Assembly: GCA_009695275.1 (NCBI GenBank)
Contig: SIBF01000001.1
Location: 1 to 55,552, forward strand
Length of the DNA stretch: 55,552 nucleotides
Source: Pedosphaera sp.
GTDB taxonomy: Bacteria > Verrucomicrobiota > Verrucomicrobiia > Limisphaerales > F1-12-MAGs170
Direction of reading: 5' to 3'
Shown: positions 11,790-54,402 of the stretch, in pieces
How the letters are laid out: each line of letters begins with the position of its first letter
Numbering within the stretch: position 1 is the stretch's first letter
Notes under the pieces: model-generated
What the model was told of the DNA's origin: nothing
What the model saw: only the letters and a program-made list of their open reading frames with translations
Database searches by the model: none
Position numbers and translations under genes: made by a program

Positions 11790-11848
11790 GAGGAACATCA
11801 TCCCTGTCCAACTCATCCAACTCCGAACCGGCACCACTATAAATCTCC

Positions 11849-14356: not shown

Positions 14357-17300
14357 TCATGGACGAATGCGGTAGAACTTCTGCGGCCCATCCCCGGGGT
14401 TGACGTTCAAAGTTTGCGCGCCGGCCGGTACATCGGTCCATGGCCCGAGGAGGCTGTCGGACACTTGCAATTTTTCGGAAGAGGACCAGGAAATCGTCAG
14501 AGTGTTTCCGCTGTGGTTCACCACGATTTTCGCGCAGTTCACGGTCACGGTGAATGAGCAGGTCAGAGGCGTGGAGGAGCCTTTGTAAACGCAGGTCACC
14601 TGTGTCTTACCCACCGGGAAGAGTCCCGGCGGCGGATTGCATTCCATCGGCAGCTCCCCGCAGCCGATGCTGACGAACGCCTTGAAATCCACAAATGCCC
14701 CGTTGTCGTCCGCGCACGGAACCACAATGTCCTGCGGGCAATGGACGACCGGCTTGGCGTTCGGGTCTGCCGGCGGGCCGATGACTGTAAATTTGGTCAC
14801 GCATGAACCCGTGTTGCCGTGCCCGTCATCGACGCTGAGAACGATGTCATGTTCGCCCGGTCCGACGAGCGTTCCCGGCGGCGGCTCCTGGGTCACCGGT
14901 TCAATGGCTACAGACCCTGTATTGGGTGAGCGCGGGCAGTTGTCCGTGAAGGTCACCTTCTGACGCAGATCGGGCACCGGCGTCTTGCATGGCACGGAAC
15001 CGGCAATCGCAGGCGTCTTGTTCAAGTCCACCGTGATCGGATCGGGGCAAGTCACAACGGGCGGCGTGGTGTCGCCAAAGAAGAAGCAGACCGGCCATCC
15101 ATAGGACTCGTAATCGGCCAAGCCATACTGGGTCAGCCCCACCGGCTGCGGCGAGACAACACTGTGGCCGCCGGGCGTCAGCGGAACGCTCGCGCCGGAG
15201 AAACCGCTCACGCCAATCGCGAAGAACGCTCCGGGCGGAATCGCCGCTCCATCGAGTTGCACCAGCCCGGCGCTCGCGGTCGCACTCGGGGCAATCACGT
15301 TGATGAAGTGGGAGGCGAATCCATCCGGCGCACAGAATTTATACTGCGTGTTGAAGAGCGCCCGGTGGGGCAATTGCATCATGAACGGATCGGACTGCTT
15401 CACGAGGTCGAAGTCGGAGCTGTTGGCGTATTGCGTTACATGGATAGGCCGGTTCGCCGTGATGCGCGCGCCCAATGCAAGGACGATCTGGAACATTTTG
15501 CCCCGGTCAAGCGTCGCCACGTTGAAGCCGTTGATCGAGACCTGAGTGCCATCGAACGCCGCCAGAACGCGGAACGTGTCGCCCTTCGTGCGTGTCTTGA
15601 GCGGGAAGGTGAAATAGTCGGTGCCCCAGCGTTTGATGGGGATCAGTTGCTCGACGAGGTAATCGCAGAACGCGTGCGACGCCGATTGGATATTCGCGCA
15701 CGCATGACTGCCGAAGGCGGCAACCGGCTTGTCGGATGAGATCAGTGTGCCGGAAAGATCCTGGGGAGGGCCGTTCACGTTTCGCAGTTGGTAGGTTTCA
15801 CCCTGCTGCAACTTGATCGTGTAAGGGAAGCCCGAGTCGTAGCCTTGCGTGACCACGGATGGAATGATCGTGACCGTCGTGTCGTTCTCGGTGGCGACCA
15901 GGGCGAACTGGGTGCCGTTTAGTTCCGGCTGCGGCGAACTCGAGTTAGAAAAACTCTGGATGATATAATCGGAACCAAGCGCCTCGGTCTGAATGGCGAG
16001 GAAACCGTCCGAAGTGTACTTCACCTTGCTCAATCCATGAACGCTGACCGGCTGGCTCGCGGTGAGATGGATGCCCTTCTTCTCGATGATATCATTCGCG
16101 TCGCCGAGATCCGCCCCCACAGGCAAAACGATGGTCACACACATCGCGGCGGGAATCGTGGTCGTTTTCTGAAACTTCAATCCGGGAATCTGAACCGACA
16201 CGGATGTGCCTGGATTCCCCACCACGGATAACTCCGGTCTCACCGGATTCGCCGGGTCGGGATCATAGTTTCCGGGGAAGGTCAGCCAGAAGTCGGTTCC
16301 GGCGCAGGTGAGGTCGCAATTCTCGCCGCGCTCGATCTCAACGCGGTAATCCTCGACTTCACCAATCGGCGAGAAGCCAGTGAAATCGAGTCCACCCTCG
16401 CGGCTGAAGCGGAATCGAGCAAAGCTGACTCCCGGCTTCGCCCGAAGTGGAACCAGGAACTTGAGGAGGTTCAGGCCGGGCGCGAGCGCCTGGCTGGTGA
16501 AGATGTGATCCTCCGGGTCGGCCCAGGAGAAGTTCACGTTGAAGTCGAGCCAGGCGTCAAGACGCCCGGTTGTGCTGGCGGTGACCTCAATCGTCGCCTC
16601 GCGTCCGGGCACGAGCGGCGTCACAAAGCGCACGCCATCTTCGTCATCCGGAATCGTCGCCAACGCACCGTCGTCGCCAAGAGCGTCCGAACTGGGCTGA
16701 CCATCCAGCTCACCATCGATCAGTTTGCCGAGAAAGAAATTTGGGTTGATCCCGTGGCGCGCGCCGTTCCGCGAGAGCGTGGTCGGATAACCGCCCGCGA
16801 GCAGATCGGATTGAAGTTGCGGCGCATCGCCAAAGTCTAGCGACTCCGCCTTGATCGACACCTTGTAATCCTCGACTTCGCCACTCGATGCGAGGCCATC
16901 AAAGTTCAAGCCACCTTCGCGGCTGAATCGGAACCGCGCGTAAGTCTCGCCTGCTTTTGCAAAAGCAGGAACGGGAAACGTCAGTGTGTTCGCGCCGGCC
17001 ACCAGCGGCAGACTGGTGAAAATCCTCTCACCAGCGTCGGCCCACGAAAAGTTCACGTTGAAATCGATCCAAGCGTCCAGACGACCGCTTTGCGATGCGG
17101 TGACGACCACGGTCGCCGTCGCGCCAGAGTTCAGCGGTCCCGAAAACACCACTCCGTCTTCGTCGTCCGGAACAGTGGTGGATGCGCCGTCGTCACCGAG
17201 AGCGTCAGAGCTTGGCTGCCCGTCCGGCTCGCCGTCGATGAGCTTGCCGAGAACAAATTTCGAGTCGATGACGTGTCGTGCGCCATTCCTCGCGAACGTT

Positions 17301-20300
17301 GTTGGATAGCCACCCGCCAGTAGATTGGATACAAGCTGCGGCGCGTCGCCGAAATCGAGCAACGGCGCGCTGATCGTCACTTTGTAATCCTCGACTTCAC
17401 CGCTGGACGCCGAACCGTCAAAGTTCAGACCACCCTCGCGACTGAAGCGGAACCGTGCGTAAGTCTCGCCCGCTTTTGCCGAGGCGGGAACCGAAAATGC
17501 CAACGTGTTTGCGCCCGCCACCAGCGGCAGACTGGTGAAACTCTTCTCACCAGCGTCCGCCCACGAGAAGTTCGAGTTGAAATCAATCCACGCGTCAAGA
17601 CGACCGCTCTGAGACGCCGTGACGATCACGGTCGTCGTCGCGCCAGCGTTCAGCGGTCCAGAGAAAACCACTCCATCCTCATCATCAGGAACAGCGGTGG
17701 ATGCGCCGTCGTCACTGAGAGCATCCAGGCCCGGCTGGCCGTCGGGCTCCCCGTCGATCAATTTGCCGAGGAAGAATCCTGGCTGGATCGCATGTCGTGC
17801 GCCATTCCGCGAGAGCGTCGTCGGATAACCACCCACCGCCAGCCCAGCGGGGAATTCCGGCGCGTCGCCAAAGTCGAGCGAGACCGTGGAAATCGTCACC
17901 TTGTAATCCTCAACCTCGCCACTCGATGCCGGGCCATCGAAGTTCAACCCACTTTCGTGACTGAAGCGGAACCGTACGTAAGTCTCACCCGCTTTTGCCG
18001 AGGCGGGAACCGAAAATGTCAACGTGTTTGCGCCCGCCACCAGCGGCAGACTGGTGAAAATCTTCTCACCAGCGTCCGCCCACGAGAAGTTCGAGTTGAA
18101 ATCAATCCACGCGTCAAGACGACCGCTCTGAGACGCCGTGACGATCACGGTCGTCGTCGCGCCAGAATTCAGCGGCCCGGAGAAGACCACGCCGTCCTCG
18201 TCGTCCGGTACGGCGGTGGAGATGCCATCGTCACCAAGAGCGTCTGAACTTGGCTGGCCGTCCGTCTCCCCATCAATGAATTTCCCGAGAACGAATTTAG
18301 GGTCAATAACATGCCGCGCGCCGTTCCGCGCGAGCGTGGTGGGATAGCCGCCCGCCGCCAGCCCGGTTGAAAACTCCGGCGCGTCGCCGAAGTCGAACAA
18401 CTGCGCGCTGATCGTCACCTTGTAATCCTCCACCTCGCCATCGGACGCGAGACCATCAAAACTTTTCACGCCTTCGAGGCTGAAACGGAAACGCGCGAAG
18501 GTGTCTCCACCTTTCGCGTCCGCAGGCACGTTGAATGAAAGTGTGTTCGCTCCGGGCACGAGCGCCTGTCCCGCGAAAATTCGCTCGTTCGTTTCAAGCC
18601 ACGAACCATTGCCGTTGAAATCGAGCCACGCATCCAGCCGCCCACTCACGGACGCGAACACTTCGAGCTTCGTGGTCTCACCGGCGTTGAGCGGAGTCAG
18701 GAATCGAACCCCATCCTCGTCGTCGGGAACGGTCGGAGATGAACCATCATCGCCGAGTGCGTCGGCGCTCGGTTTGCCGTCCGGCTCGGCGTCGATGAGG
18801 CTGCCGAGGAAAACGCCCTTCACGATTCGATGCCGAGCACCGTTGTTCTTGAGTGTGGTCGGAAAGGATGGCTCCGGCGCATCGCCAAAATCGAATTCGA
18901 TCAATTGAACCGTCAGGCTCCCCGGATTGCTGGTGATCGAGCCATTCTGGTTGCTCACGACCACGTCGTAATTCCCGGACCGGCTGGTTTGGACTGCCGG
19001 CAGAAGCAGCGTGGAGCCCAATTCGCCAGGCAACGCTCTTTGGTTGAACCGCCACTGAAATGCCAATGGAGGATCGCCCGCTGCGTCCACTTTGAGAATG
19101 ACGTCCGCTCCTTCATCCGCCGTCTGGCTCGCGGGATGATTCACGATCGTCGGTGGCGAACCCTTCTTGTTCACGGTCAGCACAAACGTGTCAGCGGCTG
19201 AAGCGGCGCCATCGCTGACGGCTACTATGATTGTAGCAGCTCCGCTTTGCCCGGAAGCCGGCTGGATCGCAATGGTTCTATTCGCACCTGAACCGCCCAA
19301 CGAAATACTAGCGTCCGGCACCAGGATTTGGTCCGACGACTTCGCCGTCACTGTCAACGACGCGATCGGATTGTCGATGTCATCCACCGTGAACGCCACC
19401 GGGCCGAGGCTTGATCCCTGATCCACCGCCTGGTTTAGAATGTCCGAAATGGTCGGGGAATCGTTCGCCGGATTGACCGTCACTTTGAACGTCGTGCTTG
19501 CCGTACTGTTGGCAGAGCCGCCGTCATTGACCGTCACTGTGATCACTGCCGCTCCGTTGGCGTTGGCTATCGGTGTGAAACCAATCGAGCCGGTTGCATT
19601 TGGATTCGCGTAACTCACGCCCGGATTTGGAACCAACCCCGTGTTGTCCGACGTGGCCGTGACGGCAAGCGTCTGACTCTCGTTGCTGGCTCCCGAACCA
19701 ATTCCAGACAGCACCACTGTTTGCGGTCCAGCATCCTCGTTGATCGCCAGGTCGGAAAGCGCCCCGATGGTCGGGGGATCGTTCACCGGATTGACCGTGA
19801 CGGTGAAGGTCCGGCTGGCCGGCGTGTTCGAGCTGTCGTTGACAGACACCGTGATGTTTGCCGAGCCATTCGCATTCGATGCCGGCGTAAAACTCAAGCT
19901 ACCGGTCGCGCTCGCGCTGTTGTAGTTCACCGTCGGATTTGGAATCAGCCCGGAATTATCCGACGTAGCGGTGACGGTGAGTGTCTGGCTCTCGTTGCTC
20001 GCGCCCGATGTGATCCCGGTCAGGTTCACTGTCTGGGTTCCGGCGTCCTCGTTGATCGTCAGACTTGAAATCACGTCTATCGTCGGCGGATCATCCACCG
20101 GAGTGACCACCACCGTGAATGCTACGCTCGCCGTATTGTTCGCGGCACCGCCATCGTTGACAGTGACCGTGATCACCACACTGCCATTCGCGTTCGCCAC
20201 GGGGGCGAAGCTCAAGCTGCCCGTCGAGTTCGGGCTGGTGTAGCTCACGCCCGGATTTGGAATCAATCCCGTGTTGTCCGAAGTGGCCGTGACGGCAAGC

Positions 20301-21787
20301 GTCTGACTCTCGTTGCTGGCTCCCGAACCAATTCCAGACAGCGCCACTGTTTGCGTTCCAGCATCCTCGCTGATCGTCAGGCCGATCAGCCGGTCGATCG
20401 TCGGCGGGTCGTTCACCGGATTGACCGTGACGGTGAAGGTCCGGCTGGCCGGCGTGTTCGAGCCATCGCTGACAGACACCGTGATGTTTGCCGTGCCACT
20501 TCCATTCGACACGGGAGCAAAACTCAGACTGCCCGCCGCGTTCGGACTTGTGTAACTGACACCCGGATTTGGAATCAGCCCGGTGTTGTCCGACGTAGCG
20601 GTGACGGTGAGCGTCTGGCTCTCGTTGCTCGCGCCCGATGTGATCCCTGTCAGGTTCACCCCCTGGGTCCCGGCATCCTCGTTGATCGTCAGACTCGAAA
20701 TCGCGTCGAGCGTCGGCGGATCATCCACCGGATTGACCACCACCGTGAATGTTACGCTCGCCGTATTGTTCGCGGCACCGCCATCGTCCACGGTGACAGT
20801 GATCGACGCCTTGCCATTCGCATTCGCCACCGGCGCGAAGCTCAGGCTGCCCGTGGAGTTCGGGCTGGTGTAGCTCACGCCCGGATTGGGGATCAGGCTC
20901 GTATCGCTCGAAGTGGCGGTGATTGTGAGCGTCTGGCTCTCATTGCCAGGGCCGGCGGAAATGCCGGACAGGGAAACGGTCTGTGTCCCGGCATCCTCGT
21001 CGATCGTCAGCGTCGTCAGCCGGTTGATCGTCGGCGGGTCATTCACCGCATTGACAATCAACGCAAACGCGGTGCTGGAACTGGCCTTTCCGTCTGAAAC
21101 TGTAATGGTGATCGAGGTCTGTCCGCTTTGATTTGCCACGGGAGTCACCGTGATCGTTCTTGCGGCCGGAGATGTCGCCCCCACACCAAGAACAATGCCG
21201 CTATCAGGCACGAGCGTCTTGTCAGTCGCATCAGCGGTCACCGAAAGGCTCGTGATGGCCGAGTCGATGTCTCCGATGAAAAATGAGATCGCGCCCGTTG
21301 ATGAGTCCTCGTCGATCGTCTGGCTGTCGATGTTCGAAGTCGTCGGCGGATCGTTCACCGGATTGACGGTCAGAAAAAACCGCGTAACGCGTGTCAGTGA
21401 ACCATCGCTGACAGTCAATATGATCAACGCAGAACCGGACTGGTTCGCGGCTGGTGTCACTGTGACGTTCCGGGCTCCTCCCTTTCCGCCGAGTGAGATC
21501 GACCCAGCCGGGACGAGCGTCGTGTTGTCAGAGGCAGCAGTAACAGTGAGCAGCGCCGCAAAGGTCTCCAGATCACTGACGGTGAAGTCAAGCGGCCCAT
21601 CAACCTTGTCCTCGTCGATGGTCTGGCTCGCGATGGTCGAGATGGTCGGCGCTGTGTTCCGGGTCTGTGCCGCGACTTCCCACTCATGGAAGAGCAAGGC
21701 AATGGCGACGACGCGGCACACAAAGCCCCCCGACGCGCGACTCACCGCGCAAGTCCAGTTCCACAGCATTGTCTTGAGCTTGTTCAC
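14357..21787 (-). CDS. giant secreted surface protein (2476 aa): signal peptide, 8 cadherin-like repeats, Ig I-set, 5 GEVED domains, IgGFc-binding-N-like domain, HYR domains, conserved FYRI tail
   Basis: Uninterrupted 7.4-kb ORF (GTG 21787, or ATG 21769 'MLWNWTCAV..'). The N-terminus has a hydrophobic h-region. Motifs in order: 'IDED...VNDPPT' units; 'PASQTADEGADVILKVDAAGDPPLAFQWRFN'; 'DFGDAPE..NGARH..DDEDGV..GEVEDY' x5; 'GTDFWLTFPGNY...DPFMMQLP'; Cys-rich 'PPVVTCPDPITV' HYR-like units. Confidence 0.9.
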   Translation of the reverse strand: MNKLKTMLWNWTCAVSRASGGFVCRVVAIALLFHEWEVAAQTRNTAPTISTIASQTIDEDKVDGPLDFTVSDLETFAALLTVTAASDNTTLVPAGSISLGGKGGARNVTVTPAANQSGSALIILTVSDGSLTRVTRFFLTVNPVNDPPTTSNIDSQTIDEDSSTGAISFFIGDIDSAITSLSVTADATDKTLVPDSGIVLGVGATSPAARTITVTPVANQSGQTSITITVSDGKASSSTAFALIVNAVNDPPTINRLTTLTIDEDAGTQTVSLSGISAGPGNESQTLTITATSSDTSLIPNPGVSYTSPNSTGSLSFAPVANANGKASITVTVDDGGAANNTASVTFTVVVNPVDDPPTLDAISSLTINEDAGTQGVNLTGITSGASNESQTLTVTATSDNTGLIPNPGVSYTSPNAAGSLSFAPVSNGSGTANITVSVSDGSNTPASRTFTVTVNPVNDPPTIDRLIGLTISEDAGTQTVALSGIGSGASNESQTLAVTATSDNTGLIPNPGVSYTSPNSTGSLSFAPVANANGSVVITVTVNDGGAANNTASVAFTVVVTPVDDPPTIDVISSLTINEDAGTQTVNLTGITSGASNESQTLTVTATSDNSGLIPNPTVNYNSASATGSLSFTPASNANGSANITVSVNDSSNTPASRTFTVTVNPVNDPPTIGALSDLAINEDAGPQTVVLSGIGSGASNESQTLAVTATSDNTGLVPNPGVSYANPNATGSIGFTPIANANGAAVITVTVNDGGSANSTASTTFKVTVNPANDSPTISDILNQAVDQGSSLGPVAFTVDDIDNPIASLTVTAKSSDQILVPDASISLGGSGANRTIAIQPASGQSGAATIIVAVSDGAASAADTFVLTVNKKGSPPTIVNHPASQTADEGADVILKVDAAGDPPLAFQWRFNQRALPGELGSTLLLPAVQTSRSGNYDVVVSNQNGSITSNPGSLTVQLIEFDFGDAPEPSFPTTLKNNGARHRIVKGVFLGSLIDAEPDGKPSADALGDDGSSPTVPDDEDGVRFLTPLNAGETTKLEVFASVSGRLDAWLDFNGNGSWLETNERIFAGQALVPGANTLSFNVPADAKGGDTFARFRFSLEGVKSFDGLASDGEVEDYKVTISAQLFDFGDAPEFSTGLAAGGYPTTLARNGARHVIDPKFVLGKFIDGETDGQPSSDALGDDGISTAVPDDEDGVVFSGPLNSGATTTVIVTASQSGRLDAWIDFNSNFSWADAGEKIFTSLPLVAGANTLTFSVPASAKAGETYVRFRFSHESGLNFDGPASSGEVEDYKVTISTVSLDFGDAPEFPAGLAVGGYPTTLSRNGARHAIQPGFFLGKLIDGEPDGQPGLDALSDDGASTAVPDDEDGVVFSGPLNAGATTTVIVTASQSGRLDAWIDFNSNFSWADAGEKSFTSLPLVAGANTLAFSVPASAKAGETYARFRFSREGGLNFDGSASSGEVEDYKVTISAPLLDFGDAPQLVSNLLAGGYPTTFARNGARHVIDSKFVLGKLIDGEPDGQPSSDALGDDGASTTVPDDEDGVVFSGPLNSGATATVVVTASQSGRLDAWIDFNVNFSWADAGERIFTSLPLVAGANTLTFPVPAFAKAGETYARFRFSREGGLNFDGLASSGEVEDYKVSIKAESLDFGDAPQLQSDLLAGGYPTTLSRNGARHGINPNFFLGKLIDGELDGQPSSDALGDDGALATIPDDEDGVRFVTPLVPGREATIEVTASTTGRLDAWLDFNVNFSWADPEDHIFTSQALAPGLNLLKFLVPLRAKPGVSFARFRFSREGGLDFTGFSPIGEVEDYRVEIERGENCDLTCAGTDFWLTFPGNYDPDPANPVRPELSVVGNPGTSVSVQIPGLKFQKTTTIPAAMCVTIVLPVGADLGDANDIIEKKGIHLTASQPVSVHGLSKVKYTSDGFLAIQTEALGSDYIIQSFSNSSSPQPELNGTQFALVATENDTTVTIIPSVVTQGYDSGFPYTIKLQQGETYQLRNVNGPPQDLSGTLISSDKPVAAFGSHACANIQSASHAFCDYLVEQLIPIKRWGTDYFTFPLKTRTKGDTFRVLAAFDGTQVSINGFNVATLDRGKMFQIVLALGARITANRPIHVTQYANSSDFDLVKQSDPFMMQLPHRALFNTQYKFCAPDGFASHFINVIAPSATASAGLVQLDGAAIPPGAFFAIGVSGFSGASVPLTPGGHSVVSPQPVGLTQYGLADYESYGWPVCFFFGDTTPPVVTCPDPITVDLNKTPAIAGSVPCKTPVPDLRQKVTFTDNCPRSPNTGSVAIEPVTQEPPPGTLVGPGEHDIVLSVDDGHGNTGSCVTKFTVIGPPADPNAKPVVHCPQDIVVPCADDNGAFVDFKAFVSIGCGELPMECNPPPGLFPVGKTQVTCVYKGSSTPLTCSFTVTVNCAKIVVNHSGNTLTISWSSSEKLQVSDSLLGPWTDVPAGAQTLNVNPGDGPQKFYRIRP
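16340..18912 (-). repeat. 5 tandem GEVED-domain coding repeats (~173 aa, ~520 bp each)
   Basis: Unit boundaries at about 18912, 18400, 17880, 17360, 16840 and 16340. Units 2-4 are close to identical at DNA level (for example 17520-17650 versus 18040-18170). Confidence 0.85.
19140..21655 (-). repeat. 8 tandem ~105-aa (~315-bp) cadherin-like/Ig-like coding repeats; units 3-7 alternate A/B types to give a ~630-bp higher-order repeat
   Basis: Each unit ends in 'VN(P/A)V(N/D)DPPT'. DNA near 19620-19760 is nearly identical to 20250-20390, and 19930-20080 to 20555-20710. Confidence 0.85.
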
Positions 21788-21803
21788 GACTCGTCAAAAG
21801 CGC

Positions 21804-24800
21804 CTATTTGATCCGGTAAAACCGCTGCTTCGATTCCGAAGTGTTGATCGTGATCTCGTTTCCGCCGACCGTGACATCCACCCACGGTCCCGCCGGGCTG
21901 TCTGCCACCTGAAGCACGCCAGCACCGGACCACGAGATCGTGAGTTGGGAATTGTTGAGCACCGGCGCCACACTGATCTGCGCGCAACTCACGGTGATTT
22001 TGAATTCGCACGTCAACGGCGGCGATGAACCCGGCAGCGTGCAGATCACCGTCGTCGTCCCGACCGGGAAGAGGCTGTTCGGCGGAGGCACGCATTCGAG
22101 CGGCACCTCATCGCAATCGACCGTGGCAAACGCATGGAAATCCACGATGGCGCCATTGTCGTCCGCGCACTTCACCACCATGTCCTGCGGACAATGGAGA
22201 ACAGGCTTGGCGTCTGGATCGGCGTTCGGATCCGTCACCGTGAATGTCGTCACGCAGAAGCCGACGTTCCCGCGCGCATCGGCGACGCTGCACACGACCT
22301 CATGGACGCCAGGTCCGACGAACGTTCCGGGCGGCGGATCCTGCGTCACCACGCCGCCAGCTCCCGCGAAGGTCTGTGATGGAGGGCAATTGTCGGTGAA
22401 CGTCACTTTGGATCGAAAATCCGGAACAGGGGCTTTGCATATCCGAACCGCGGTCAGGTTCGCGTTCAACGTCGCGACGGCGGGCGGTGGACAGTTCACC
22501 GTCGGAGGTGTTGTGTCGCCAAAGAAAAGACAGGTGGGCCAGCCGTAAGATTCGTACTGGTTCCATCCGTAAAGGGTGACTCCCACCGGCTGGGCGGCCG
22601 TCAGCGAGTGAACGCCGGGCACGACCGCTTTGGTCGCCTCCGAGTAGGCAGTCACTCCTATCGGACTAAAGCCACCCACGGCCACGCCATCCAGCAAAAC
22701 GCTGCCCGCGGCGGCGGTGGGCGCGATCACGTTGATGTGATGAGTGAGGAAGCCGGTGGGCACGCAGAATTTCTGCTGGGCGTTGAACAGCGGACGGCCC
22801 GGCACCAGCGACATGAACGGATCGCTCGAGGCTACCGTGTCGAAATCGGAGCTGTTCGCATACTGGGCCACGAGCACAGGCCGGCTGGCGGTGATCTGGG
22901 TGCCATTCACCGCCGCCGAAGCGGGACGGACAGTCTCATAAAACCCGCCCGCCGCGAGTGTCGCCACCGGCGCGCCGTTGACCGAGACAATCGTGTTGTC
23001 GTACCCGGCCAGAACACGGACTGTGTCGCCCTTGGAACGAGTCGCCAGCCGCCGCAGGTAAAATTCCGCCGCCCACCGATTGACCGGCGGAAGCTGCTCG
23101 ACGACGTAATCGCAGAACGACGAACTGGCGGAGCGAACGTTCGCGCAAGCGTGGCCGCCAAAAACGCCGATCGGTTTGTCCGACAGGATATGGGTTCCCG
23201 TGAGATCAGCGCCCACGCCGGAGGCGCGAAGTTGATACGTCTCGCCCGCGCCCAGCGGGACAGGGAAAGGAACCCCCGCGGCGTGCGGGCCGGTCACCGC
23301 GCCCGGGATCACGATAACCGTGGTATCAGGTTCGGTGGCGACGATGGCGAATTGCGTCCCGTCCAACTCCGGCACGCCCGCCTGCTCATTGCCATACGCC
23401 AGGACAAAATACTCGGTGCCCAGTGCCTCCGTCGGCAGGGCCAGGTAGCCGTCGCTCGAAAACTTCACCTTGCTCATTCCGTGGATGCCGACCGGCGCGG
23501 TCGCGGTGACATGAATGCCCTTGTCGTCGATGAAATCACTCTTATCGCCCAGGTCGGTTTCCTTCGGCAGATCAATGTTCACACACGACGACGCCGGAAT
23601 GACGACGTTCTTGTTGAAGCCCAGGCCGGGAATTGCGACCGTCACCTGCGTTCCCGGATTGCCCAGCACCCACAAGCCCGGCTTCACCGGATTCGCCGGA
23701 TCCGGCGCATAATTGCCAGGGAACGTCAGCCAGAAATCGGTCCCCTCGCAACTCAGGTCGCAGCGCCCCGCCTTCTCGATCCGGGCGACGTGATCCTCGA
23801 CCTCCCCCACCCCGCCATCGCCGTCGAAATTCAATTTACCTTCCCGGCTGAACCGGAACCGGGCGAACGCGGAGCCAGCTTGTGCTGATGCGGGCACGGG
23901 AAAATTCAACACGTTCACGCCCGTCGCAACCACCTGGCCGTTGAAGATCCTCTCGGAAGCGTCGGCCCAGCTCAGGTTGCGATTGAAATCCACCCACGCA
24001 TCGATACGACCGCTGGCGGTTGTGATGATCTCGACCTGCGCGATGGTTCCCGGCGTCAGCGCCGAAAGGAACCGCACGCCATCCTCATCGTCCAAGCTTC
24101 CATTTGCGTCATCACCGCTCGCCGCCGCGTTTGGCTGGCCGTTCAACTCTCCGTCCTCAATGCGTCCAAGATGGAAGCCTTTCAGAATATGATGCCGCGC
24201 TCCATTCCTCGCGAGTGTCGTGGGGAAACCGCCATTCTCCAGCTCCGGCGCGTCGCCGAAATCGAGCAACTCAGATTCGATGTTCACGCTGTAGTCTTCC
24301 ACTTCGCCATCTTTCGCCGGGCCAAGGAACGAAAGCTTCGGTTCGTGGCTCCACCGGAAGCGGACAAAGGTCCGGCCCTGCTTGGCCGAGACGGGCACGA
24401 TAAAACTCAGCGTGTGCGCTCCCGTCGCCAGCGAAAGGTCGTTGAAGACGTGTTCTCCCTCGTCGGCCCAACTGCCGTTTAGGTTGAGGTCCACCCAGGC
24501 ATTGAGGAGGCCCTGCCCAAGGACAGTCACCACGACCGTCGCCGCCTGCCCCGGCACGAGCGACGAGGAAAACACGACGCCATCTTCATCGTCCGCCGCG
24601 CCCGCCGGCAAAACATCGTCGCCCAGCGCGTCGGCGTGCGGCTGGCCATCAAGTTCCGGATCGATCCGGCGCCCGAGAGTGAATCCCTCGACAATTCCGT
24701 GCCGCGCTCCGTTTTTCTTCAGTGTCGTTGGATAAGGACCATCTGGCGCGTCGCCGAAATCCAGTTTTCCAGCTCCAGTCGGCGGCGGCGCGATGGTATT

Positions 24801-24905
24801 GATGCTGGCAGAGGAGGCGCGCGTCGCCAAGGCGGACAAGACCGCCGCGAGCGCGAGACCAATCAGCGCAAAGGAAACTGATCCATGGAGAAGGCTATTT
24901 CTCAT
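21804..24905 (-). CDS. secreted surface protein (~1033 aa): signal peptide, 2 GEVED domains, IgGFc-binding-N-like domain, HYR domains, conserved FYRI tail (paralogue of the C-terminal half of 14357..21787)
   Basis: ATG 24905 ('MRNSLLHGSVSFALIGLALAAVLSALA'); the track start GTG 24920 is also possible. Either start overlaps the stop (24895-97) of the giant upstream ORF. 'DFGDAPDGPYPTTLKKNGARH...GEVEDY' occurs twice. 'GTDFWLTFPGNYAPDPANPV' and the following sequence is collinear with the 2476-aa protein. Confidence 0.9.
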   Translation of the reverse strand: MRNSLLHGSVSFALIGLALAAVLSALATRASSASINTIAPPPTGAGKLDFGDAPDGPYPTTLKKNGARHGIVEGFTLGRRIDPELDGQPHADALGDDVLPAGAADDEDGVVFSSSLVPGQAATVVVTVLGQGLLNAWVDLNLNGSWADEGEHVFNDLSLATGAHTLSFIVPVSAKQGRTFVRFRWSHEPKLSFLGPAKDGEVEDYSVNIESELLDFGDAPELENGGFPTTLARNGARHHILKGFHLGRIEDGELNGQPNAAASGDDANGSLDDEDGVRFLSALTPGTIAQVEIITTASGRIDAWVDFNRNLSWADASERIFNGQVVATGVNVLNFPVPASAQAGSAFARFRFSREGKLNFDGDGGVGEVEDHVARIEKAGRCDLSCEGTDFWLTFPGNYAPDPANPVKPGLWVLGNPGTQVTVAIPGLGFNKNVVIPASSCVNIDLPKETDLGDKSDFIDDKGIHVTATAPVGIHGMSKVKFSSDGYLALPTEALGTEYFVLAYGNEQAGVPELDGTQFAIVATEPDTTVIVIPGAVTGPHAAGVPFPVPLGAGETYQLRASGVGADLTGTHILSDKPIGVFGGHACANVRSASSSFCDYVVEQLPPVNRWAAEFYLRRLATRSKGDTVRVLAGYDNTIVSVNGAPVATLAAGGFYETVRPASAAVNGTQITASRPVLVAQYANSSDFDTVASSDPFMSLVPGRPLFNAQQKFCVPTGFLTHHINVIAPTAAAGSVLLDGVAVGGFSPIGVTAYSEATKAVVPGVHSLTAAQPVGVTLYGWNQYESYGWPTCLFFGDTTPPTVNCPPPAVATLNANLTAVRICKAPVPDFRSKVTFTDNCPPSQTFAGAGGVVTQDPPPGTFVGPGVHEVVCSVADARGNVGFCVTTFTVTDPNADPDAKPVLHCPQDMVVKCADDNGAIVDFHAFATVDCDEVPLECVPPPNSLFPVGTTTVICTLPGSSPPLTCEFKITVSCAQISVAPVLNNSQLTISWSGAGVLQVADSPAGPWVDVTVGGNEITINTSESKQRFYRIK

Positions 24906-36900: not shown

Positions 36901-39900
36901 GTTCTTGATCGAGACCTTGAGGCTGCCGATGCCGGCGGAGAGGTTCACTCCGGTGGCACGAACAGCCGCTTTCAGTGTGAGGCCGGTCGTGTCATAGAGA
37001 AACGGAATCAAATTGCAGCCGCTGCTGACATCGAGTCCGAACTCGATCATGAGATTGGCGCTGGCGGTGACATTAAGATTCGCCGAGCCTTCGATCTGGA
37101 TGATGTCCGCAACCCCTTCCAGCACCGCCCGCGCGGGATGACCAGGCGGGAGGAGTCCCACAATCTTCCCGAGGTCGAAGGCGAACGGCAGGTAATTGCC
37201 ATAGGAAAGCCCATACTCGAGATGGAACTTGATCGCCGTCTCCGTGAGGGTGTTCGCCCCGTCATTGCTGGCACCGTCGCCCACGGGTGAAACTGAAGTG
37301 TCGAGACCGGCGCTGAATGGGCTGGCGACGCTGGCGTTCAACTTGTCGCGGACCTTCGCGGCGGTGGTGTAGGTCGCGTTATAGACAATCTTGACGGTCT
37401 TGTTCGTGTTATCGACGACGATGCTGGCGTCATTCACGCCGTCGGCGAACGAGCCGTCGTCATCGAAGTCGATCTTCCAATCGTTGAACACCGCGCCGTT
37501 GCTCCTGGCCGTGAACACCAGCGCGTTCTTCTGGCCGGACGGATTGAAGCGCGCGACAGCGGCGGAACCGGCCGAACCACCCGCAGGCCCGGAAGTTTTC
37601 GCGTCATCGAGCTTGATCCAGAACTTGGCCGGGTCCACGCCGAAGAGTTTCTCAAGGTCGCTTTCGAGCTTGGTGATCGCGGAACTGTCGCCGGAAGAAA
37701 GGCTCTTGAAGGCGCGGGCAATATCTCCGGCGAAATCAAGCACGTCGCTCACACTGACATTGATCAGAGGCAGCGGCTCGCTCAGGAAGGAAAACGCCTT
37801 CAAGCCCTCCAGTTGATCGCTCAATGAATCGAGGACGGCGACAACATCCAGAAAGCTCGCGCAGCGGAAGTCCCCGAGCGAACCAAGTTTCGGATAAGTG
37901 ACGAAGGTGCCCTTGTTGTTTGTCGCGGCGTCGTAAGCGGCACCATTGTAGTGAACATCGTGAAAGTCAGGGATGAAAATCCGGAATTGCGATCCTGGCG
38001 GGATCAGCGGATTGCCGGAGAGCGTCGGCAGATTCGGCAGCACTGTGATGTTATTCAACTGAATGTCCACCGAGCCGGTGATCGACGTGTCCGGCGTGAC
38101 ATAGCTGCCCAGGTCCGACATGTGCCTGAGGATCATGTCCAGATCCAGGCGTGTCGGATGCAACGAACCGGGCGGCTCATGCGGATTCTTGAGCTTGAGC
38201 GTGGCGGCGAGCGTGCCGGTGGCCGTCCCGCCGCTGGTGGAGAGTTCAAAGATCGCAAAGCGCGCCTTGGCCGCAAGGTTGGTGGCGGAAACGGTCAATG
38301 TTCCTCCGAGCTGCACGTCTTCGAGGAAGACGCCGCGATTGGCTGACTTGGCCGGCACGATGTTGTTCATGCCGATCTCGGTGACAATGGGATCGCTGTT
38401 CGCCGATTCGATGGCGATCGACGTGATGACGCCGAGGTAACTGTCGAGCACGCCATTGTGGAAGAACGGATCGCCCGTTACCACGTCCTCCTCGACATCC
38501 AATTGCCCGTCGTTGTCCGTGTCTTCTCCAGCATCGAGAACGTGATTGCCATTGGCGTCCTCGTTCACCGTGTCGAGCTTGCCATCGGCGTCCTGATCTT
38601 CATTGATGGCTTCGATGAAGATGCCCGGGCTGAGAGTGGTTGAGACAAAGCGAATGACGCGGTTGAGCGGCTTGCCGTGGTAAGCCGGGCCGGTGCCAAG
38701 GAGGCCATTCAAATCGGCGGCGAGGTCGGCCACGCTGGTATTGTTGTCAGTGCGCAATGGCCCCACCGACTTCGAGAGCGTAAAGGTATGCCGGTACTCT
38801 CCGTCATTGAGGTTGATCGTGAAGGTCGAGTCGGCGGTCGTCCGGCCGTCGGACGGCGGCGGCAATGTCGGGGAACTGATGAGCTTGGGCACCGTCAGAT
38901 CGCCAAGATTCATCCCGAGTGTGAAGGAGATGCTGGGCGTGCCACTGATGCTGAAATCGCCACTGGCCGAGATGTCCACCAAGTCGCCCAGGCCGATGTC
39001 CGGATTGTATTTGAATTGGGTGGATTTGGTGACCGGGTAGCTGAAACTGAGGGCGATGGCGAAGGTCTTGTTCACCAGATCCACCTGCGGATCGATGTTG
39101 AAGGTGGCCGGGCCGGGTGGATCAAGGATCTCGTTCAGTTTGGCGAGCAATCCCTGGATTGTCGGGAATTTCGGGAACGAAACACCGGACGAATCACGCG
39201 GAAAACCAATTTCGGTGAACGCGGGATTCGACGCATCCCCGGTGATCTTGAGACTCGCGCCGGCGAGCAGCTTCAAGGCGATCTGCGAACTCTTGAGGAT
39301 GGCCTGCACCTTCGTGCCGAGTCCGGCACTGGTGAGAGCCTCGTTGATGTCGAGAACGAGATCGGCAAGGGCGGAGTTGTTATCGAGACCGGTGTCCGTG
39401 CTCGCCTTGGTGACGGTGACGGTGACAGCCGATGCGCCGTCGATGCTCAGGCCGAACACTGCGTTCCCCGTCAACTGCCCCTTCGCCAGTTTGCCGGTCG
39501 GACTGCCGGAGCTGGTGCTCGAGACGAGTTCAACATCGACCAGCCTGGCAAAGATTTGATCGAGGAATGCGGATCCGAAATCGAACGACCCGCCAATGTT
39601 CAAGCCGGAGCCGAAAGGCAGATCCACCTGCAGCAACGCGCTGCCGCTGATGCCGCCAAGGCCGCTCAAAGTTCGCTTCAATTCCCCGTAGAAATCCTCG
39701 ATCCGGAAGTTGAGGAAGCGGTAGAGGAAGGCTCCGGCCCCCGCAATGCCGCCGACAGGCTTGACGGTGACTTCGAGCGGGTGACTGATGTCCGGCCAGA
39801 TGACCTGGATCGTGCCGACAGGGATATCGAAGAGCGGGGGACCGCCGGGTTCCATGCCGGCGACGCGAATGTCCGTTTCGAACACAAGGTCATCACCCGC

Positions 39901-42900
39901 CGCGCCGAGCATGTTGACTTCGAAAAATTTGGCGGGGTTGTTGGCGAACTCGTAAAGACGGATGAGTCCATCGCCGCTCTCCCCTGGATGAAGCAGATTG
40001 GCCGGTTCTTTTATCTTGAACGCGATCCCGACCTGCGGATCGACCGTGATACTGGCGTCTTCCAGAATGACCTCCAGCGGCCCGAGCCGCCCTGTTGCCG
40101 TCAACGCTCCGTTGATCCGGATGTTCCGGATCATCACTTCCGGATCGACCATGTTTTTCTTGAGGTAAAAACCCTTCCCATCAATCCCCATCTCGATCAT
40201 CAACTCGACATCGAGCGAAAGCTCCAGACTGCCGTGAATGCTCAGGAGTCCACCGAGAACATCGACATTCACGGGCGCCGAGACGGTGACGGTGCGGCGG
40301 AATGGCGCGCCTGGCTTGCCCAACTGCAGGATGCCCGAGCCCGCATTGGCAACCACGTTCAGGGGCGAGTCGTCCAGCGAATCGAGGAGCGTCTGAAATG
40401 CCCCATCCGTGGTGATCAACGTGCCAAGATCGGATGGCCTGAACGGACTTCCCGATTCAAAGATGCGACGCCACAGCGAGCGCGAGTCCAACCCAGCGCC
40501 GGCCAAAGACTGTTCCTCCGCTTCCGCAGCTTCGCCTGGCTCGTCGTGAGCCGGACCTTTCCCATTGAAATTGCCCCCGTTCAATGCCGATCCGAGAGCG
40601 TCACCCACCACCGGGGTGTCGTCCGTGAACAGATCGCCGATCATTCCGAAGAAGCCGGTGATGTGATCCCAGACATCCTTCCAAAAGCCGATGAAATCCT
40701 CAAGGAAAGTGGTGTCGTCGAAATGCTCGACGTTTACCGAGAAAACCTTCTGCGGTCCCATCTGTCGGATCTCGACACCGTCTGCTGAACTCGTTTCAAG
40801 ATCGCTGGTGGTCGGTCCCGTGAAATCGAGCGAATCCTGAGTGGTCTGGCCACCGCCGTTGTAATCAATATCTCCAAGAACCTGAACCTCGCCATTGGCG
40901 CTATCCACGATCAACGTGTCGTTCCCAGCCCCGGTATGCACCGAGATGTCTCGAACCGTCGAGAGTTTGAAGCTCCCAATCATCATCTCCGGACCGCCAG
41001 AAGCGACGAACACCTGCAGCTCGGGAGGAGTTCCGGACGCGGGACTGAGCTTCAAGCGGACCGTGTCGTCGCCCGGGCCGGTGTCGATGCGCAGCACGGC
41101 GTCCTGAAAGACGATGCGGCTGGCGTTGGGTAATTTCCACGCTCCCCTGCCCTGCGTGCCTGCCACCAAAACATCGTCGGTCCTGTCGTAAACCAGGTCG
41201 CCGACAACGACATTTGGAAAATCGTCACCAAGGCGGGTCCAGTTCGCGATGACGGGTGAGAACGAAAGGAACACGTTCAAATCAAAAATCCCCAGCCGAT
41301 AAACTCCGTCGTGAGCCCCCACCAGCAGCACATACTCATTATCGCGCCGTAAAACCTCGACCGAGCGGAAGCTTCCAACAGTGCGAAGTCCTCCGGTGAT
41401 ATCCGTCTGGGTCACGCCCGTTACCTGGTTCGAGGCGTCCACCGCGGTTTGAAGCAGCCAGACATGGCTTTCATCCACGGCAAAGGCCGTCTGCCAATTC
41501 GTCGGATCCAGAACGATATCGGTGATCGATCCTCCTCCAGGCAAAGTCACGGTGCGGAAATTGACGCCATCCGAGCTGACCGCCACCGTGCTGCCACGCG
41601 CCACATACATCACGTTCGTCACCGAACTTCCGTCCTTCATTCCTCCGTAGGCCAGGGCGCTGACAAAATCTGAAGACGCAGCGGCGAAGGGATCCTGAAC
41701 GATGCTGACGGTGTCCCCGCGGTCCGTGCTGCTGTAAACCCGGATCCGGCCAAGCAACAGCCGGTTGGAATCCGTGGCATTCACCACCAGCGGGATGCTC
41801 TGAAATCCGGAGAACGTCCTGTCTGTCTGTGCTCTCCGAAAACCAGGAGTGTTGTCCAACCCGCTGTAGTTCGCGGCACCAGCTCCTGATTTCAGCGGGA
41901 TTCGAGTGGCGGCGGAGAATGTGTCGGCGTTCAACGGGTTCGTGAAATCTCGCCGGTCGAAGAACTGGAAATTGTTTCCCATGTAATAGCGCGTCGAGAC
42001 CGCGCCATTGTACCCGACCGCCACATAGTTGCCGTCGCCACCGGAGAGATTCGACCAATCGGTGGGGGTCGCAGTCTGCCGAATCACGCCGGTGTCCTGC
42101 GTCCCGGCGAAGATTGAATTCGTGCTATGATCGTAGGCGACCGAATGGGTGATCTCGGCGATGCGCAGGCCCCGGCCCACGAATTCCCAGGCCGGTGACA
42201 AATTTGCGGCGCGCGGATTTTGCAGGCGGTACGGTCCGCCGTCAGTCAGCGCGATCAGGTCGTTGTTGTTGACCGAGAAAACGAGGTGCCGCGTGTCCGC
42301 GTGTGGCGCGGTGGTGAAAGGAGCGGGAATGGCCCCGTTCTTCGTGGTGATCTGCGTCCAACCGGCACCGCTCCAGCGATAGATGATCGCGAAGTAAGGC
42401 CCTTCAAGATTCGCGTCGCCGGCGATATAGACGGTGTTGGCATTGAGCGGGTCGGCAACCAGGCCGAAATGCAAATCGCCCTGGCTCCCGTTTGTTCGAG
42501 GGATCGAGTTGAGCACCGTCGAACCGAGCACGTTCCAGTTGTCCCCCTGGTCGCTCGACTGAAAGACACCAGCCGGCTTCCCATCGTAACCGATGACCAC
42601 CGCATAAACAGCGTTCCCAGCCGCTTTGCTGACGGCGAGCCGGATGCGAAGTGAGTTGGCCACCGTTTCTGGCACCACACTGGTTGTGATGGCACCATTG
42701 CGGTCCAGATCTTCTCCTTCGTCCAAAACGCCGTCCGCGTCGGCATCTTCGCCAGGGTCAAGAATCCGGTTGTTGTTCGTGTCCTCGCCCGCGTCGAGCA
42801 AGCCATTGTTGTTCAAATCCTCGCTCTGCTGTGCTTCCCCGGCGACACCGTCATGATCGTAGTCCGGCGCCAAGCCGTTGATCTTCCTCGACCATGTGAT

Positions 42901-44592
42901 CGTGGCCACGTTGATGTTCTGAGCGTTCGTCGAACGCCAAATCCCCCGTGTGCCGGCCGGAGAATTGGAATCAGACACTGATAGATAAAAGCGATTCGCG
43001 TCTCCCGGATCCTGTAAGACGTCGATGATGTCCGCCTCGGGCAGCGTTCCCTTCCCGGAGAGACGGACAAAGCTGTCTCCCCCGTTGTCGCTACGGTATA
43101 AGCCGCCCTTGCCCTCAACTGTTCCGACCGTAGCGGTGGCTTTGTTCGTTGAAACATACAGCCACCCAGCCAGGTTCCTCGATGAAACAATCGAAGTGAC
43201 CGCCAGGTCGTCGAACGATCCAATCTCCTGCCAGGACTCTCCCCCATCCTTGGATCGGAACAAGCCAGCCGAGGGTCCGCCCTCACGCGCGCTGCTGAAC
43301 GAGCCGGTCCCCGCGTAAAGCACCAGTTTGTTTTGCGGCGTCGCGTTCGTGACCAGATCCGCGTTGGCGTCAAAGTAACCCACCGCCACCGCGCCGATGG
43401 CCAGCGACGGCAGATCATCCCCGACGGGAGTCCATGAAGGGTTGGCCGTGTTGAAGTTGGTGGTTTTCCAAACACCGCCACTGACCGACGCCAGAAACGC
43501 GATCGCCGGATCCGTCGGATGGAACACGACGGAGTTGACCGCGCCGACGACCGGGTTGTCAGGCGGCACTTTCGTATTGGAATTACCGGAAGTGACGAAG
43601 GGCCCCTGCTCAACCCAGACGGCCGGTTCATCCAGGATCACCACCGACGGAACGTTCGGAACAAACCGCAGGAAGAGATCCCGTCCGTTGGCCGACAGAT
43701 CGATGAGAAAAACGCCCGTGCCAACACTTCCCCAAAAATCACCGGCATCGAGATCGAACCCGTCCCGATCAAAACCTTCGATGCCCTGCGTCGTGTGAAC
43801 AAGTCGCCAGGAGTATGACTTGGTATTGTCGAAATTCGCCGCGCCCAAGGGAGCGCCCCCCAGGGTCACCGTGTGGATGTCCACGAGGTACTTGCTCGCG
43901 GCAGTGGCGTTGATGGTGAGCTTTCCGGTGATCTCCAGCAAATCCCATCCGGTGCTGCTGCCTTCCACTCCTTCGGCATCACTGATGTCCCATACAAACT
44001 TCTCCGTCCCGCTCCACGCTTCATCGACGGACAGGACGGTCTTTGCGGGCACGTGTGCCGTGGATGTATCCGTGTGTTTCCCCACGGCCCCGCCATGCAA
44101 ACCAATCCATCGGAAATCGGTAGAGTTCGCAGGCGGCCCATTCGCCGCACGCAGGGTCTCCACCAATTGCCCGCTGGTTGGATTCGTGATCTGATCGCCG
44201 ACTGTGGCGGGCACATCTTCCGACGGGCTTGCCGGTGAAGTTTGCGCTTTGGGGGAAATCCCGGACGCTTCGTTGATTGCCGCGGCGGCAACGATTTCTT
44301 CGCCACCAGGACCGCCGTCGTTCAAATCCTCATTTCCCGCGGAGCCATCGGCTGGCGCCGATGAAAAATCGCTCAAGTCAAGGGGCCTGCTGTTCTCGAA
44401 AAGATCCAGAACCGCGTCGATCGGATGATAGGTATGTTCGCTGGTTTGAGAACTGGCTGGAGCGGCGATCTCGATCGTGACTTCCTGGGTTCCTGCGAGC
44501 AAGGAGGCGGGAGCAAGTGCGGAGAAACCTTCCGCTGAAAGCAGCAGCCTTGGCTCCAGAAGTTCGATCTCAAATTGTCGTTGAAAGGACAT
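24895..44592 (-). CDS. giant (6565 aa) LEPR-XLL-type mosaic extracellular Ca-binding protein: BNR/Asp-box propeller, TSP3-like loops, ~2300-aa unassigned core, RTX blocks, Calx-beta and SdrD-B-like units, ~1470-aa C-terminal RTX module array
   Basis: Single uninterrupted 19.7-kb ORF starting '[22 protein letters not shown]'. Asp-boxes: '[11 protein letters not shown]', 'RSDNGGDSF', 'SSDQGDNWN'. Many GGxGxD nonapeptides ('[26 protein letters not shown]'). Calx-beta-like units ('..DY....G.L.F.PGE..K.I.VPI..D...E.DE.F.V.L'). SdrD-B-like units ('GRVWLD...GV..V.V.L.D......T.T...G.Y.F..L..G.Y'). Confidence 0.92.
   Translation of the reverse strand: [6565 protein letters not shown]
25440..29860 (-). 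repeat. C-terminal RTX (hemolysin-type Ca-binding nonapeptide) module array, ~1470 aa
   Basis: Dense GGxGxDxL/I/F motifs organised in two recurring ~90-115-aa module types (see findings). Confidence 0.85.
29870..33440 (-). repeat. Calx-beta (about 6 units) interleaved with SdrD-B/Cna-B-like (about 3 units) block
   Basis: Units listed in the CDS evidence. Boundaries are approximate, judged by motif positions only. Confidence 0.7.
33465..34190 (-). repeat. first RTX nonapeptide block of the giant protein
   Basis: '[15 protein letters not shown]', '[62 protein letters not shown]...[13 protein letters not shown]...[20 protein letters not shown]'. Confidence 0.85.
41130..43650 (-). other. BNR/Asp-box (sialidase / VPS10-like) beta-propeller region of the giant protein
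   Basis: Recurrent 'S-x-D-x-G-x-(S/T/N)-W/F' boxes and 'GGVWKT', 'GLYRS', 'GIWRS', 'VFQS' blade starts. It ends near '[14 protein letters not shown]'. Confidence 0.65.
44533..44559 (-). other. LEPRxLL N-terminal signature of the giant protein (aa 12-20, 'LEPRLLLSA')
   Basis: Read directly from the translation. From memory, it matches the motif that names the 'LEPR-XLL domain' used in RefSeq annotation of very large repeat proteins. No Sec-type hydrophobic core follows it. Confidence 0.6.
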
Positions 44593-54396: not shown

Positions 54397-54402
54397 TGTG
54401 GG

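Follow-up and report, generated by a model that had tools for sequence, protein, structure and literature searches.

We have found that a 55,552-nucleotide (nt) stretch of the Verrucomicrobiota bacterium Pedosphaera sp. (GenBank assembly GCA_009695275.1, contig SIBF01000001.1, positions 1 to 55,552; hereafter the window) carries a three-gene locus, g1-g2-g3, in which the gene for a 6,565-residue protein with RTX (repeats-in-toxin) motifs is followed directly by two genes for partner proteins with signal peptides, and that the pairing of giant and partner is conserved at every informative locus in relatives. We lean, by a modest balance, to the view that the locus represents a cassette conserved in Verrucomicrobiota that specifies a two-component, calcium-dependent extracellular structure or fibre, the giant subunit of which is exported by a SecA-like module. 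All parts of the locus appear to be extracellular and of adhesion type. A sequence-only reading of the window had proposed one co-expressed, multi-component surface structure with no described counterpart. The locus is indeed a co-inherited and very probably co-transcribed unit, but its components number two rather than three, with the second present here as a duplicate pair. We likewise found no paper describing the giant-partner pair, the individual parts of which are known.

We compared the pair across 15 informative loci, namely this window, eight genome loci and six further contigs. At all 15 a partner gene of the IgGFc_binding/HYR type directly follows a giant RTX gene on the same strand. 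Synteny in relatives had been named beforehand as a test that could refute a single structure, and the order of giant then partner is kept throughout. The pair persists at protein identities down to 30-45% while the surrounding genes vary between loci, the other neighbors being unrelated housekeeping or catabolic genes. At the eight genome-locus junctions examined the partner start falls between -11 and +28 nt from the giant stop, with an ATGA overlap in three, and seven of the eight partners have a signal-peptide-like N-terminus. The nearest genome, a Verrucomicrobiales metagenome-assembled genome (MAG; SXMN01, F1-120-MAGs170; locus L003), has the full trio in the same order, with identities of 79% for the g1 C-terminus, 83% for g2 and ~81% for g3. 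More distant Verrucomicrobiota MAGs (L005-L011, 30-45% identity) have a g1-like giant and then one GEVED/IgGFc-binding gene of ~1,500-2,400 residues. Of six further partner homologs that were looked up, every one comes right after a HemolysinCabind/SdrD_B/Calx-beta gene for a protein of 4,817-6,397 residues; one of the six is in the cultured Limisphaera ngatamarikiensis NGM72.4 (GCA_011044775.1), where contig JAAKYA010000081 carries a gene for 6,189 residues. Because all 15 loci keep the pair with near-zero junctions while the neighbors differ, the conserved unit, as judged from sequence, is a translationally coupled pair of an RTX/Calx-beta/SdrD-B giant and a signal-peptide-bearing partner. 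Such coupling implies matched expression, which lends indirect support to a putative physical partnership of the two proteins.

The same comparison bears on whether the locus might instead be an adhesin island, that is, a set of independent surface adhesins under one promoter that form no complex and have no dedicated machinery. Each of the three proteins is a mosaic of modules common in adhesins, IgGFc_binding occurs in many unrelated surface proteins (Myxococcota, Bacteroidota, Nitrotoga) with no giant neighbor implied, and a Foldseek search with a model of the partner found no specific docking fold. We nevertheless consider an island unlikely. The pair remains adjacent in 15 of 15 loci as every other neighbor changes, and independent adhesins are not normally held as tightly as the overlapping or nearly touching starts and stops of the eight examined junctions.

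Two of the relatives show signs of fragmentation. An in-frame stop near 8438-8440 divides the L003 ortholog of g3 (6809-13885) into open reading frames (ORFs) of 543 and 1815 residues; the gene could be a pseudogene or truly divided, or the stop could be a sequencing error. At L117 (1-12625) the giant is called as 5394 plus 723 residues and the partner as 507 plus 874 residues, which suggests frameshifts or decay of the cassette.

Within the window the three ORFs occupy 30,236 of the 55,552 nt (54%), as in the sequence-only reading, and the appearance of translational coupling described there was reproduced. The g2 ATG, at 24905, falls inside the end of g1, whose stop is at 24895-97, so that the two genes share 11 nt (sequence ATGAGAAATAG); 16 nt separate g2 from the GTG of g3. 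Public gene calls start g2 at ATG 24905 and g3 at ATG 21769. The GTG is the probable true start of g3, because the resulting N-terminus (MNKLK...) is kept in the closest ortholog, that of L003. A consensus scan found no terminator-like site at the g1-g2 or g2-g3 junction, in agreement with the lack of hairpins noted earlier; across the region the terminator-like matches (11, against 12.4 expected from shuffled sequence) are not in excess. With a common strand, minimal spacing, conserved order and junctions lacking a terminator-like site, the three genes are very probably co-transcribed. The operon promoter presumably lies in the 270 nt between g1 and a divergent DUF1501 gene, where a sigma-70 scan, which is uninformative for this phylum, gave no convincing promoter.

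We considered whether the giant ORF could be an artefact of assembly and rejected this. The whole 6,565-residue ORF is independently present on one ENA contig, and two Logan assemblies are 100% identical over 14 kb that comprise the final 10 kb of g1, the whole of g2 and the beginning of g3. The DNA repeats inside g1 are short and diverged (at most 76% identity over at most 77 nt), so collapse by the assembler is unlikely. The largest repeat of the locus is a 312-nt tandem unit in g3 (19610-21055, 70-72% matches).

The evidence on export of the giant comes from its N-terminus. In g1 we found no signal peptide, no transmembrane segment and no hydrophobic 19-residue window anywhere in the protein. 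It opens instead with a leader of ~155 residues that holds three conserved motifs: FEIELLEPRLLLS at residues 7-19, Y-x-P...F at residues 55-65 and QLVETLRAANGPP at residues 143-155. The first of these gives a match to the NCBIfam LEPR-XLL family (NF012209) of 18.4 bits, barely above the cut-off of 17, and g1 thus has the defining feature of that family, a motif of ~24 residues scoring over the cut-off at the start of a very large protein. Residues 1-320 are predicted to be disordered in an AlphaFold2 model based on an alignment of 48 sequences.

In three relatives the giant-partner pair adjoins a set of five genes. At L009 a giant, its partner, a TolC-like protein, a 246-residue HlyD-like protein, an HlyD-GAF protein, a Peptidase_M50/HlyD fusion and a 678-residue SecA-like protein that lacks the C-terminal part of SecA are all encoded on one strand with gaps of less than 130 nt, the five-gene module occupying 13786-22448 of that locus. 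The same five genes are present at L006 and L011, where they are convergent with the pair. Their composition exactly matches the secondary SecA_DEAD/Peptidase_M50-HlyD/GAF-HlyD/HlyD/OEP module described in Verrucomicrobia and Planctomycetes by Kamneva, Poudel and Ward in 2015 (PMC4452313). Those authors proposed a type-I-like secretion role and called the biological role of the module "completely unknown"; their text names no substrate and mentions neither giant proteins, RTX, LEPR-XLL nor cargo (PMC4452313).

We then scanned metagenomes with an alignment of the M50-HlyD protein and obtained 80 module loci (L032-L111), in which the five-gene order is constant wherever the contig is long enough. 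For the leader we counted the 43 loci in which the SecA-like gene is complete and followed by 600 nt or more. At 15 of these (~14 distinct sequences) a huge same-strand ORF starts within 500 nt of the SecA-like gene, and all 15 ORFs open with F-x-L-E-x-L-E-P-R-x-L-L-S. In most of them the contig ends before the ORF does, after 2,100-2,660 residues. As in g1, Pfam domains are almost absent from the first 2,600 residues of these ORFs. Several other module loci abut large ORFs whose N-termini fall off the contig. The strict LEPR motif occurs 13 times in 955 kb of module loci, always at the N-terminus of a post-SecA giant ORF, and once in 777 kb of control loci, the one occurrence being g1 itself. 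The extended motif of g1 matches 14 other LEPR ORFs. Residues 4-158 of g1 align with the N-termini of eight post-SecA giant ORFs at 26-33% identity (E 1e-7 to 1e-11), giving a tripartite leader consensus of FELExLEPRxLLS, Y-x-P...F-x-G and QL(T/V)xTL(K/R)xANGPP. In the module-adjacent ORFs of L034, L102 and L107 the homology to g1 extends beyond the leader into its body. Adjacency to the module holds for g1 homologs at L006, L009, L011, L034, L102 and L107. To judge from its N-terminal leader, g1 is likely a cargo of the SecA-like module.

A number of observations weigh against export by this route. At 28 of the 43 counted loci no LEPR ORF directly follows the SecA-like gene. The 55-kb window contains no SecA-like module gene, so that the module would have to be present elsewhere in the source genome; no module is seen in the visible flanks of L003, L010 or L112-L119 either, nor next to the pair at most loci, although these flanks, of 10 kb, do not extend to the giant gene's 5' side, where the module is placed in the metagenomic loci. 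A phmmer search of 1.84 billion proteins with the leader by itself returned seven weak, fragmentary matches (E 3e-5 to 9e-4). M50-HlyD resembles leader-processing intramembrane metalloproteases of daptides, a class of ribosomally synthesized and post-translationally modified peptides, and has a weakly PqqD-like N-terminus, both of which would favor the route; but the first match is sub-threshold (NF041824, 193 bits against a cut-off of 300), and the second also falls under its curated threshold. RTX repeats classically accompany a type I secretion system of the ATP-binding cassette (ABC) kind and a C-terminal signal. As regards assembly of the structure, Foldseek with the model of the partner core gave only generic multi-immunoglobulin and beta-sandwich matches, with template-modeling (TM) scores of at most 0.15.

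The profile of M50-HlyD matches PDB entries in its MexA-like adaptor part only. A PqqD-like leader-recognition domain in this protein is a weak lead, and recognition and cleavage of the leader by M50-HlyD is offered here as an idea only. We found no paper linking the LEPR-XLL leader to the SecA-like module. In its broadest form our proposal is that the ~155-residue LEPR-XLL leader is the cargo tag of a truncated SecA/M50-HlyD/GAF-HlyD/TolC route for signal-peptide-less giants in Verrucomicrobiota and other phyla, and that the cassette of giant and IgGFc-binding partner is an undescribed two-component extracellular fibre built by that route together with Sec; to this wider statement we give somewhat less than even credence.

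The body of g1 beyond the leader has a modular organization. The first folded region is modeled by AlphaFold2 confidently as an all-beta structure, the best Foldseek matches of which in the PDB are GH74 xyloglucanases, enzymes with tandem seven-bladed propellers (E 5.6e-23). These matches (6p2n, 6mgj, 2cn2 and 4lgn) have target TM scores of 0.57-0.63 and 14-16% identity to g1. A BNR propeller had been proposed from the sequence. It is sub-threshold in Pfam, which reports Sortilin-Vps10 at E 0.0019, and a single Asp-box is present; the propeller is upheld by the predicted fold and by homologs of residues 1-1200, which carry PF15902 and PF02012 and two of which are named LEPR-XLL proteins. The propeller is likely a glycan-binding head, catalytic or not.

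The GH74-like fold also raises the question of whether g1 is a giant surface glycoside hydrolase with carbohydrate-binding accessories as its partners, the locus then being a tethered polysaccharide processor. The structural match itself speaks for this, as do the carbohydrate-active enzyme (CAZyme), sulfatase or rhamnosidase genes beside some homologous loci (L112, L115) and, in the flank of the window, an altronate dehydratase gene and genes of the 2-keto-3-deoxygluconate (KDG) pathway. However, identity to GH74 enzymes is low and the likeness is one of predicted fold, with a catalytic Asp pair hypothetical, the same double-propeller fold is non-catalytic in sortilin/VPS10 and Ycf48-like proteins, the propeller makes up 13% of g1, and the CAZyme neighbors are not conserved across loci. 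We regard a polysaccharide processor as improbable and continue with the two-component calcium-dependent structure.

The propeller is followed by ~2,260 residues for which we obtained no Pfam match even at E<=5 and no NCBIfam match. Self-comparison shows almost no internal repeats in this region, a search of the PDB by sequence with the N-terminal half of g1 gave no match, and a homolog search with residues 2401-3400 returned seven proteins only, none of them giant. An enzymatic or toxin domain might hide within this part of the protein. The C-terminal half consists of RTX blocks and extender domains. Pfam detects RTX (PF00353, 346 bits) in 23 stretches, together with five Calx-beta and three SdrD_B domains; with 37 GGxGxD motifs, g1 also has the RTX nonapeptide pattern. 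RTX sequence totals ~1,800 residues, and 11 stretches within the tandem RTX-containing units match serralysin-type C-terminal regions. The tail that follows is 68% identical in L003 and is not conserved in more distant homologs. The domain list of the sequence-only reading was for the most part borne out (LEPR-XLL, RTX, Calx-beta, SdrD_B, cadherin-like, Ig, GEVED and IgGFc_binding), the exceptions being HYR, which in g2 falls under the Pfam cut-off (18.1 bits against 21.7), and the TSP3-like loops. We rejected TSP3 repeats in g1, where there are only three short DxDxDGxxD motifs and no Pfam support.

The RTX region bears on a further alternative, in which g1 is a classical RTX adhesin exported by a type I system of ABC protein, membrane fusion protein (MFP) and TolC through a C-terminal signal, the LEPR-XLL leader serving for retention, regulation or something else. 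The placement of ~1,800 RTX residues near the C-terminus ahead of a 100-residue non-repeat tail, as in adhesins of the LapA and MpIBP type, and the strong partial matches to the C-terminal regions of serralysin and RTX toxins are what would be expected of such a protein. The remaining evidence points the other way. There is no ABC exporter gene in the window or beside the pair at any examined locus, L112-L119 included, and the transporter found in linkage, at those loci that have one, is the SecA-like module. The only MFP of the window, an HlyD-like protein, belongs to an AcrB resistance-nodulation-division (RND) pump (7147-11789) on the opposite strand that is not conserved with the pair, and we rejected this pump as the g1 exporter. 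Lastly, it is the N-terminal leader that is conserved among homologs and not the C-terminal tail. Taken together we judge a classical type I route quite unlikely, and retain export by the SecA-like module as the preferred reading.

The partner proteins are built to a common plan. In g2 a signal peptide, recognized from a hydrophobic N-terminus, is followed by two GEVED domains, IgGFc_binding, a Cys-rich HYR-like region and a C-terminal domain of ~55 residues ending in FYRIK. In g3 the signal peptide is followed by Big_9/tandem-95 and Cadherin_5 repeats, one Ig domain, five GEVED domains, IgGFc_binding, the HYR-like region and the C-terminal domain; Pfam and NCBIfam count four Cadherin_5, seven Big_9, Ig_3/I-set and five GEVED. 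The IgGFc_binding matches (PF17517) score 213.9 bits in g2 and 220.4 bits in g3 against a cut-off of 25.6 and cover the whole profile (1-297 of 297). The earlier assignment of signal peptides to g2 and g3 and of none to g1 stands, with the qualification that the g3 peptide is long and atypical, yet conserved in the closest ortholog. The two proteins had also been credited with a shared C-terminal cassette, which understates their relationship: beyond sharing the C-terminal 650 residues of g3, residues 53-1038 of g2 and 1477-2475 of g3 are 56% identical over 1011 residues, and because of this g2 and g3 are, on their sequences, tandem paralogs and not distinct components. Most relatives have a single partner of ~1,000-2,400 residues and the g2 duplicate was found only in this window and the 80-85%-identical L003; by the same comparison g2 is a tandem copy, specific to this lineage, of the last (3') third of g3. 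The invariant core of the partner is IgGFc_binding plus HYR; GEVED domains are usual, but L119 is without any.

The AlphaFold2 model of g2 residues 386-1038, the core shared with g3, is all-beta with a predicted local distance difference test (pLDDT) score of 89, and a sequence search of the PDB with g2 gave no match. Neither partner matches POTRA or ShlB, and both look like soluble multi-beta-sandwich proteins. Two-partner secretion of the TpsA/TpsB kind was rejected, given partners that lack POTRA/ShlB matches and a g1 that lacks a signal peptide. The ~55-residue C-terminal domain (g2 residues 986-1038, g3 residues 2424-2476) recurs at the partner C-termini of L003 and L008-L011 with the pattern W..G.L...GPW......F(Y/F)R(I/L). 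It is matched by no family model and could be a sorting or anchoring signal.

On the reading we prefer, g1 would be a filament-like protein of ~6,500 residues made up of a disordered leader, a double propeller, ~2,260 residues of unknown fold, SdrD-B/Calx-beta extenders and RTX beta-rolls. It would leave the cell unfolded through a type-I-like duct composed of the truncated SecA-type ATPase, the M50-protease/HlyD fusion, the GAF-HlyD adaptor, the small HlyD-like protein and the TolC-like channel. This duct would recognize the N-terminal leader and possibly remove it, and the RTX repeats would fold on meeting extracellular Ca2+. The partner (g2/g3), exported separately by Sec, would bind the giant at the surface and act there as anchor, cap or co-adhesin. 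Table 1 gives the positions of the genes and of their parts.

Table 1. Features of the g1-g2-g3 locus (window positions; aa, amino acid residues)
Feature	Position	Strand	Description or basis
g1	24895-44592	minus	6565 aa, ATG start; ORF list
g1 N-terminal leader (~155 aa)	44119-44592	minus	aa 1-158; three conserved motifs
LEPR-XLL core of g1	44509-44574	minus	aa 7-28; NF012209
g1 GH74/sortilin-like tandem beta-propeller (predicted)	41053-43632	minus	aa 321-1180; AlphaFold2 model, Foldseek, homologs
g1 region with no detectable family	34276-41052	minus	aa 1181-3439; ~2,260 aa
g1 first RTX beta-roll block	33439-34275	minus	aa 3440-3718; HemolysinCabind, GGxGxD motifs
g1 SdrD_B/Calx-beta region	29854-33432	minus	aa 3721-4913; Pfam, copies placed by BLAST
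g1 tandem RTX-containing units (~15, of 105-130 aa each)	25201-29796	minus	aa 4933-6464; self-similarity, unit mapping
g1 non-repeat Ser/Ala-rich tail	24898-25200	minus	aa 6465-6565; last codons overlap g2 start
g2	21804-24920	minus	1038 aa from GTG 24920, 1033 aa from ATG 24905
IgGFc_binding of g2	22566-23453	minus	Pfam
g3	14357-21787	minus	2476 aa, GTG start
IgGFc_binding of g3	15122-16009	minus	Pfam
g1 upstream region	44593-44862		270 nt; between g1 and divergent DUF1501 gene

The flanks of the locus hold several further gene groups. A PhdYeFM antitoxin gene (13922-14200) and a PIN toxin gene (13539-13937) lie on the minus strand 157 nt downstream of g3, with a weak hairpin and U-run at 14235-14258 between g3 and this pair. 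The RND efflux genes, on the plus strand, adjoin the altronate dehydratase gene (11849-13399), and the KDG-pathway genes, for 2-keto-3-deoxy-6-phosphogluconate (KDPG) aldolase and 2-keto-3-deoxy-galactonokinase, are at 2360-4038. On the other side of the locus the minus-strand region 47102-50066 contains two tandem paralogs with prepilin-type N-methylation motifs (296 and 304 residues), downstream of an extracytoplasmic function (ECF) sigma factor gene (49482-50066). A further minus-strand region, 52654-55248, encodes a PilB/GspE-type ATPase, the N-terminus of which is of the MshEN-like, cyclic di-GMP (c-di-GMP)-binding kind, beside a protein with tetratricopeptide repeats (TPR) and MshEN; these genes may specify a c-di-GMP-controlled pilus or type II secretion apparatus. 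We considered the type II secretion- or type IV pilus-like genes at 47-55 kb as an outer-membrane route for the partner and rejected them, there being no supporting conservation.

How bacteria of the Planctomycetes-Verrucomicrobia-Chlamydiae (PVC) group export signal-peptide-less proteins of 5,000-10,000 residues is a question that has so far gone unanswered. The present locus, with its relatives, points to one answer that can be tested and that would also supply the missing substrate of the module described in 2015. The leader is conserved, the cargo class recurs, the partner is obligatory and the same cassette is available in a cultured strain, L. ngatamarikiensis. If the proposal is true it adds a new pair of cargo signal and transporter and, for an abundant environmental phylum, a new surface-fibre architecture; otherwise, what is left is a well-conserved giant adhesin operon, useful for annotation and unsurprising.

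Giant RTX adhesins delivered by type I secretion include LapA of Pseudomonas, MpIBP of Marinomonas and SiiE of Salmonella. Such systems adjoin ABC/MFP/TolC genes, and they use a C-terminal signal and an N-terminal retention plug under the control of LapG/LapD. Like these proteins g1 has thousands of residues, no Sec signal peptide, Ca2+-binding Ig-like extenders, RTX repeats near the C-terminus and, putatively, a ligand-binding region and a role in surface adhesion. Unlike them, it has no linked ABC exporter, begins with a disordered LEPR-XLL leader and is accompanied by an obligatory Sec-dependent partner gene, and the transporter linked to its class is SecA-based. The propeller region shares with GH74 and sortilin/VPS10 proteins the predicted arrangement of two tandem seven-bladed propellers, but differs from them in its low identity, in having one canonical Asp-box and in being embedded in a 6,565-residue protein.

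Among systems nearer to the proposed export route, the module of Kamneva et al. adjoins the pair with the same five genes at L006, L009 and L011 but not in this window. An independent parallel is found in Omnitrophota, where giant proteins contain a fused truncated SecA (DEAD and preprotein-binding domains, no wing/scaffold) that is proposed to export the giant itself (bioRxiv 10.1101/2023.11.21.568195). In both cases giants of the PVC group are associated with a truncated SecA. The Omnitrophota proteins differ in carrying the SecA domain within the giant and in having many transmembrane helices; g1 has neither, and in its relatives the SecA-like protein is the product of a separate gene. On the partner side, GEVED is the stalk domain of fibrillar CshA-type adhesins (PMC10952558), and g2 and g3 resemble these in using GEVED stalk units, two and five respectively, in secreted proteins with signal peptides. 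They lack the NR2 ligand-binding domain of CshA as well as an LPXTG anchor, and differ further from CshA-type adhesins in the succession of GEVED by IgGFc_binding and HYR-like regions, and in their diderm host. Already known, then, are the NCBIfam LEPR-XLL family, GEVED stalk domains, giant RTX adhesins and, since 2015 and with no substrate attached, the probable export machine (PMC4452313). Judged from its genes, the cassette appears to behave as a giant RTX adhesin. Three features set it apart from the known ones, namely its LEPR-XLL leader, its obligatory partner, which depends on Sec, and the genomic link between its class and a type-I-like machine based on SecA.

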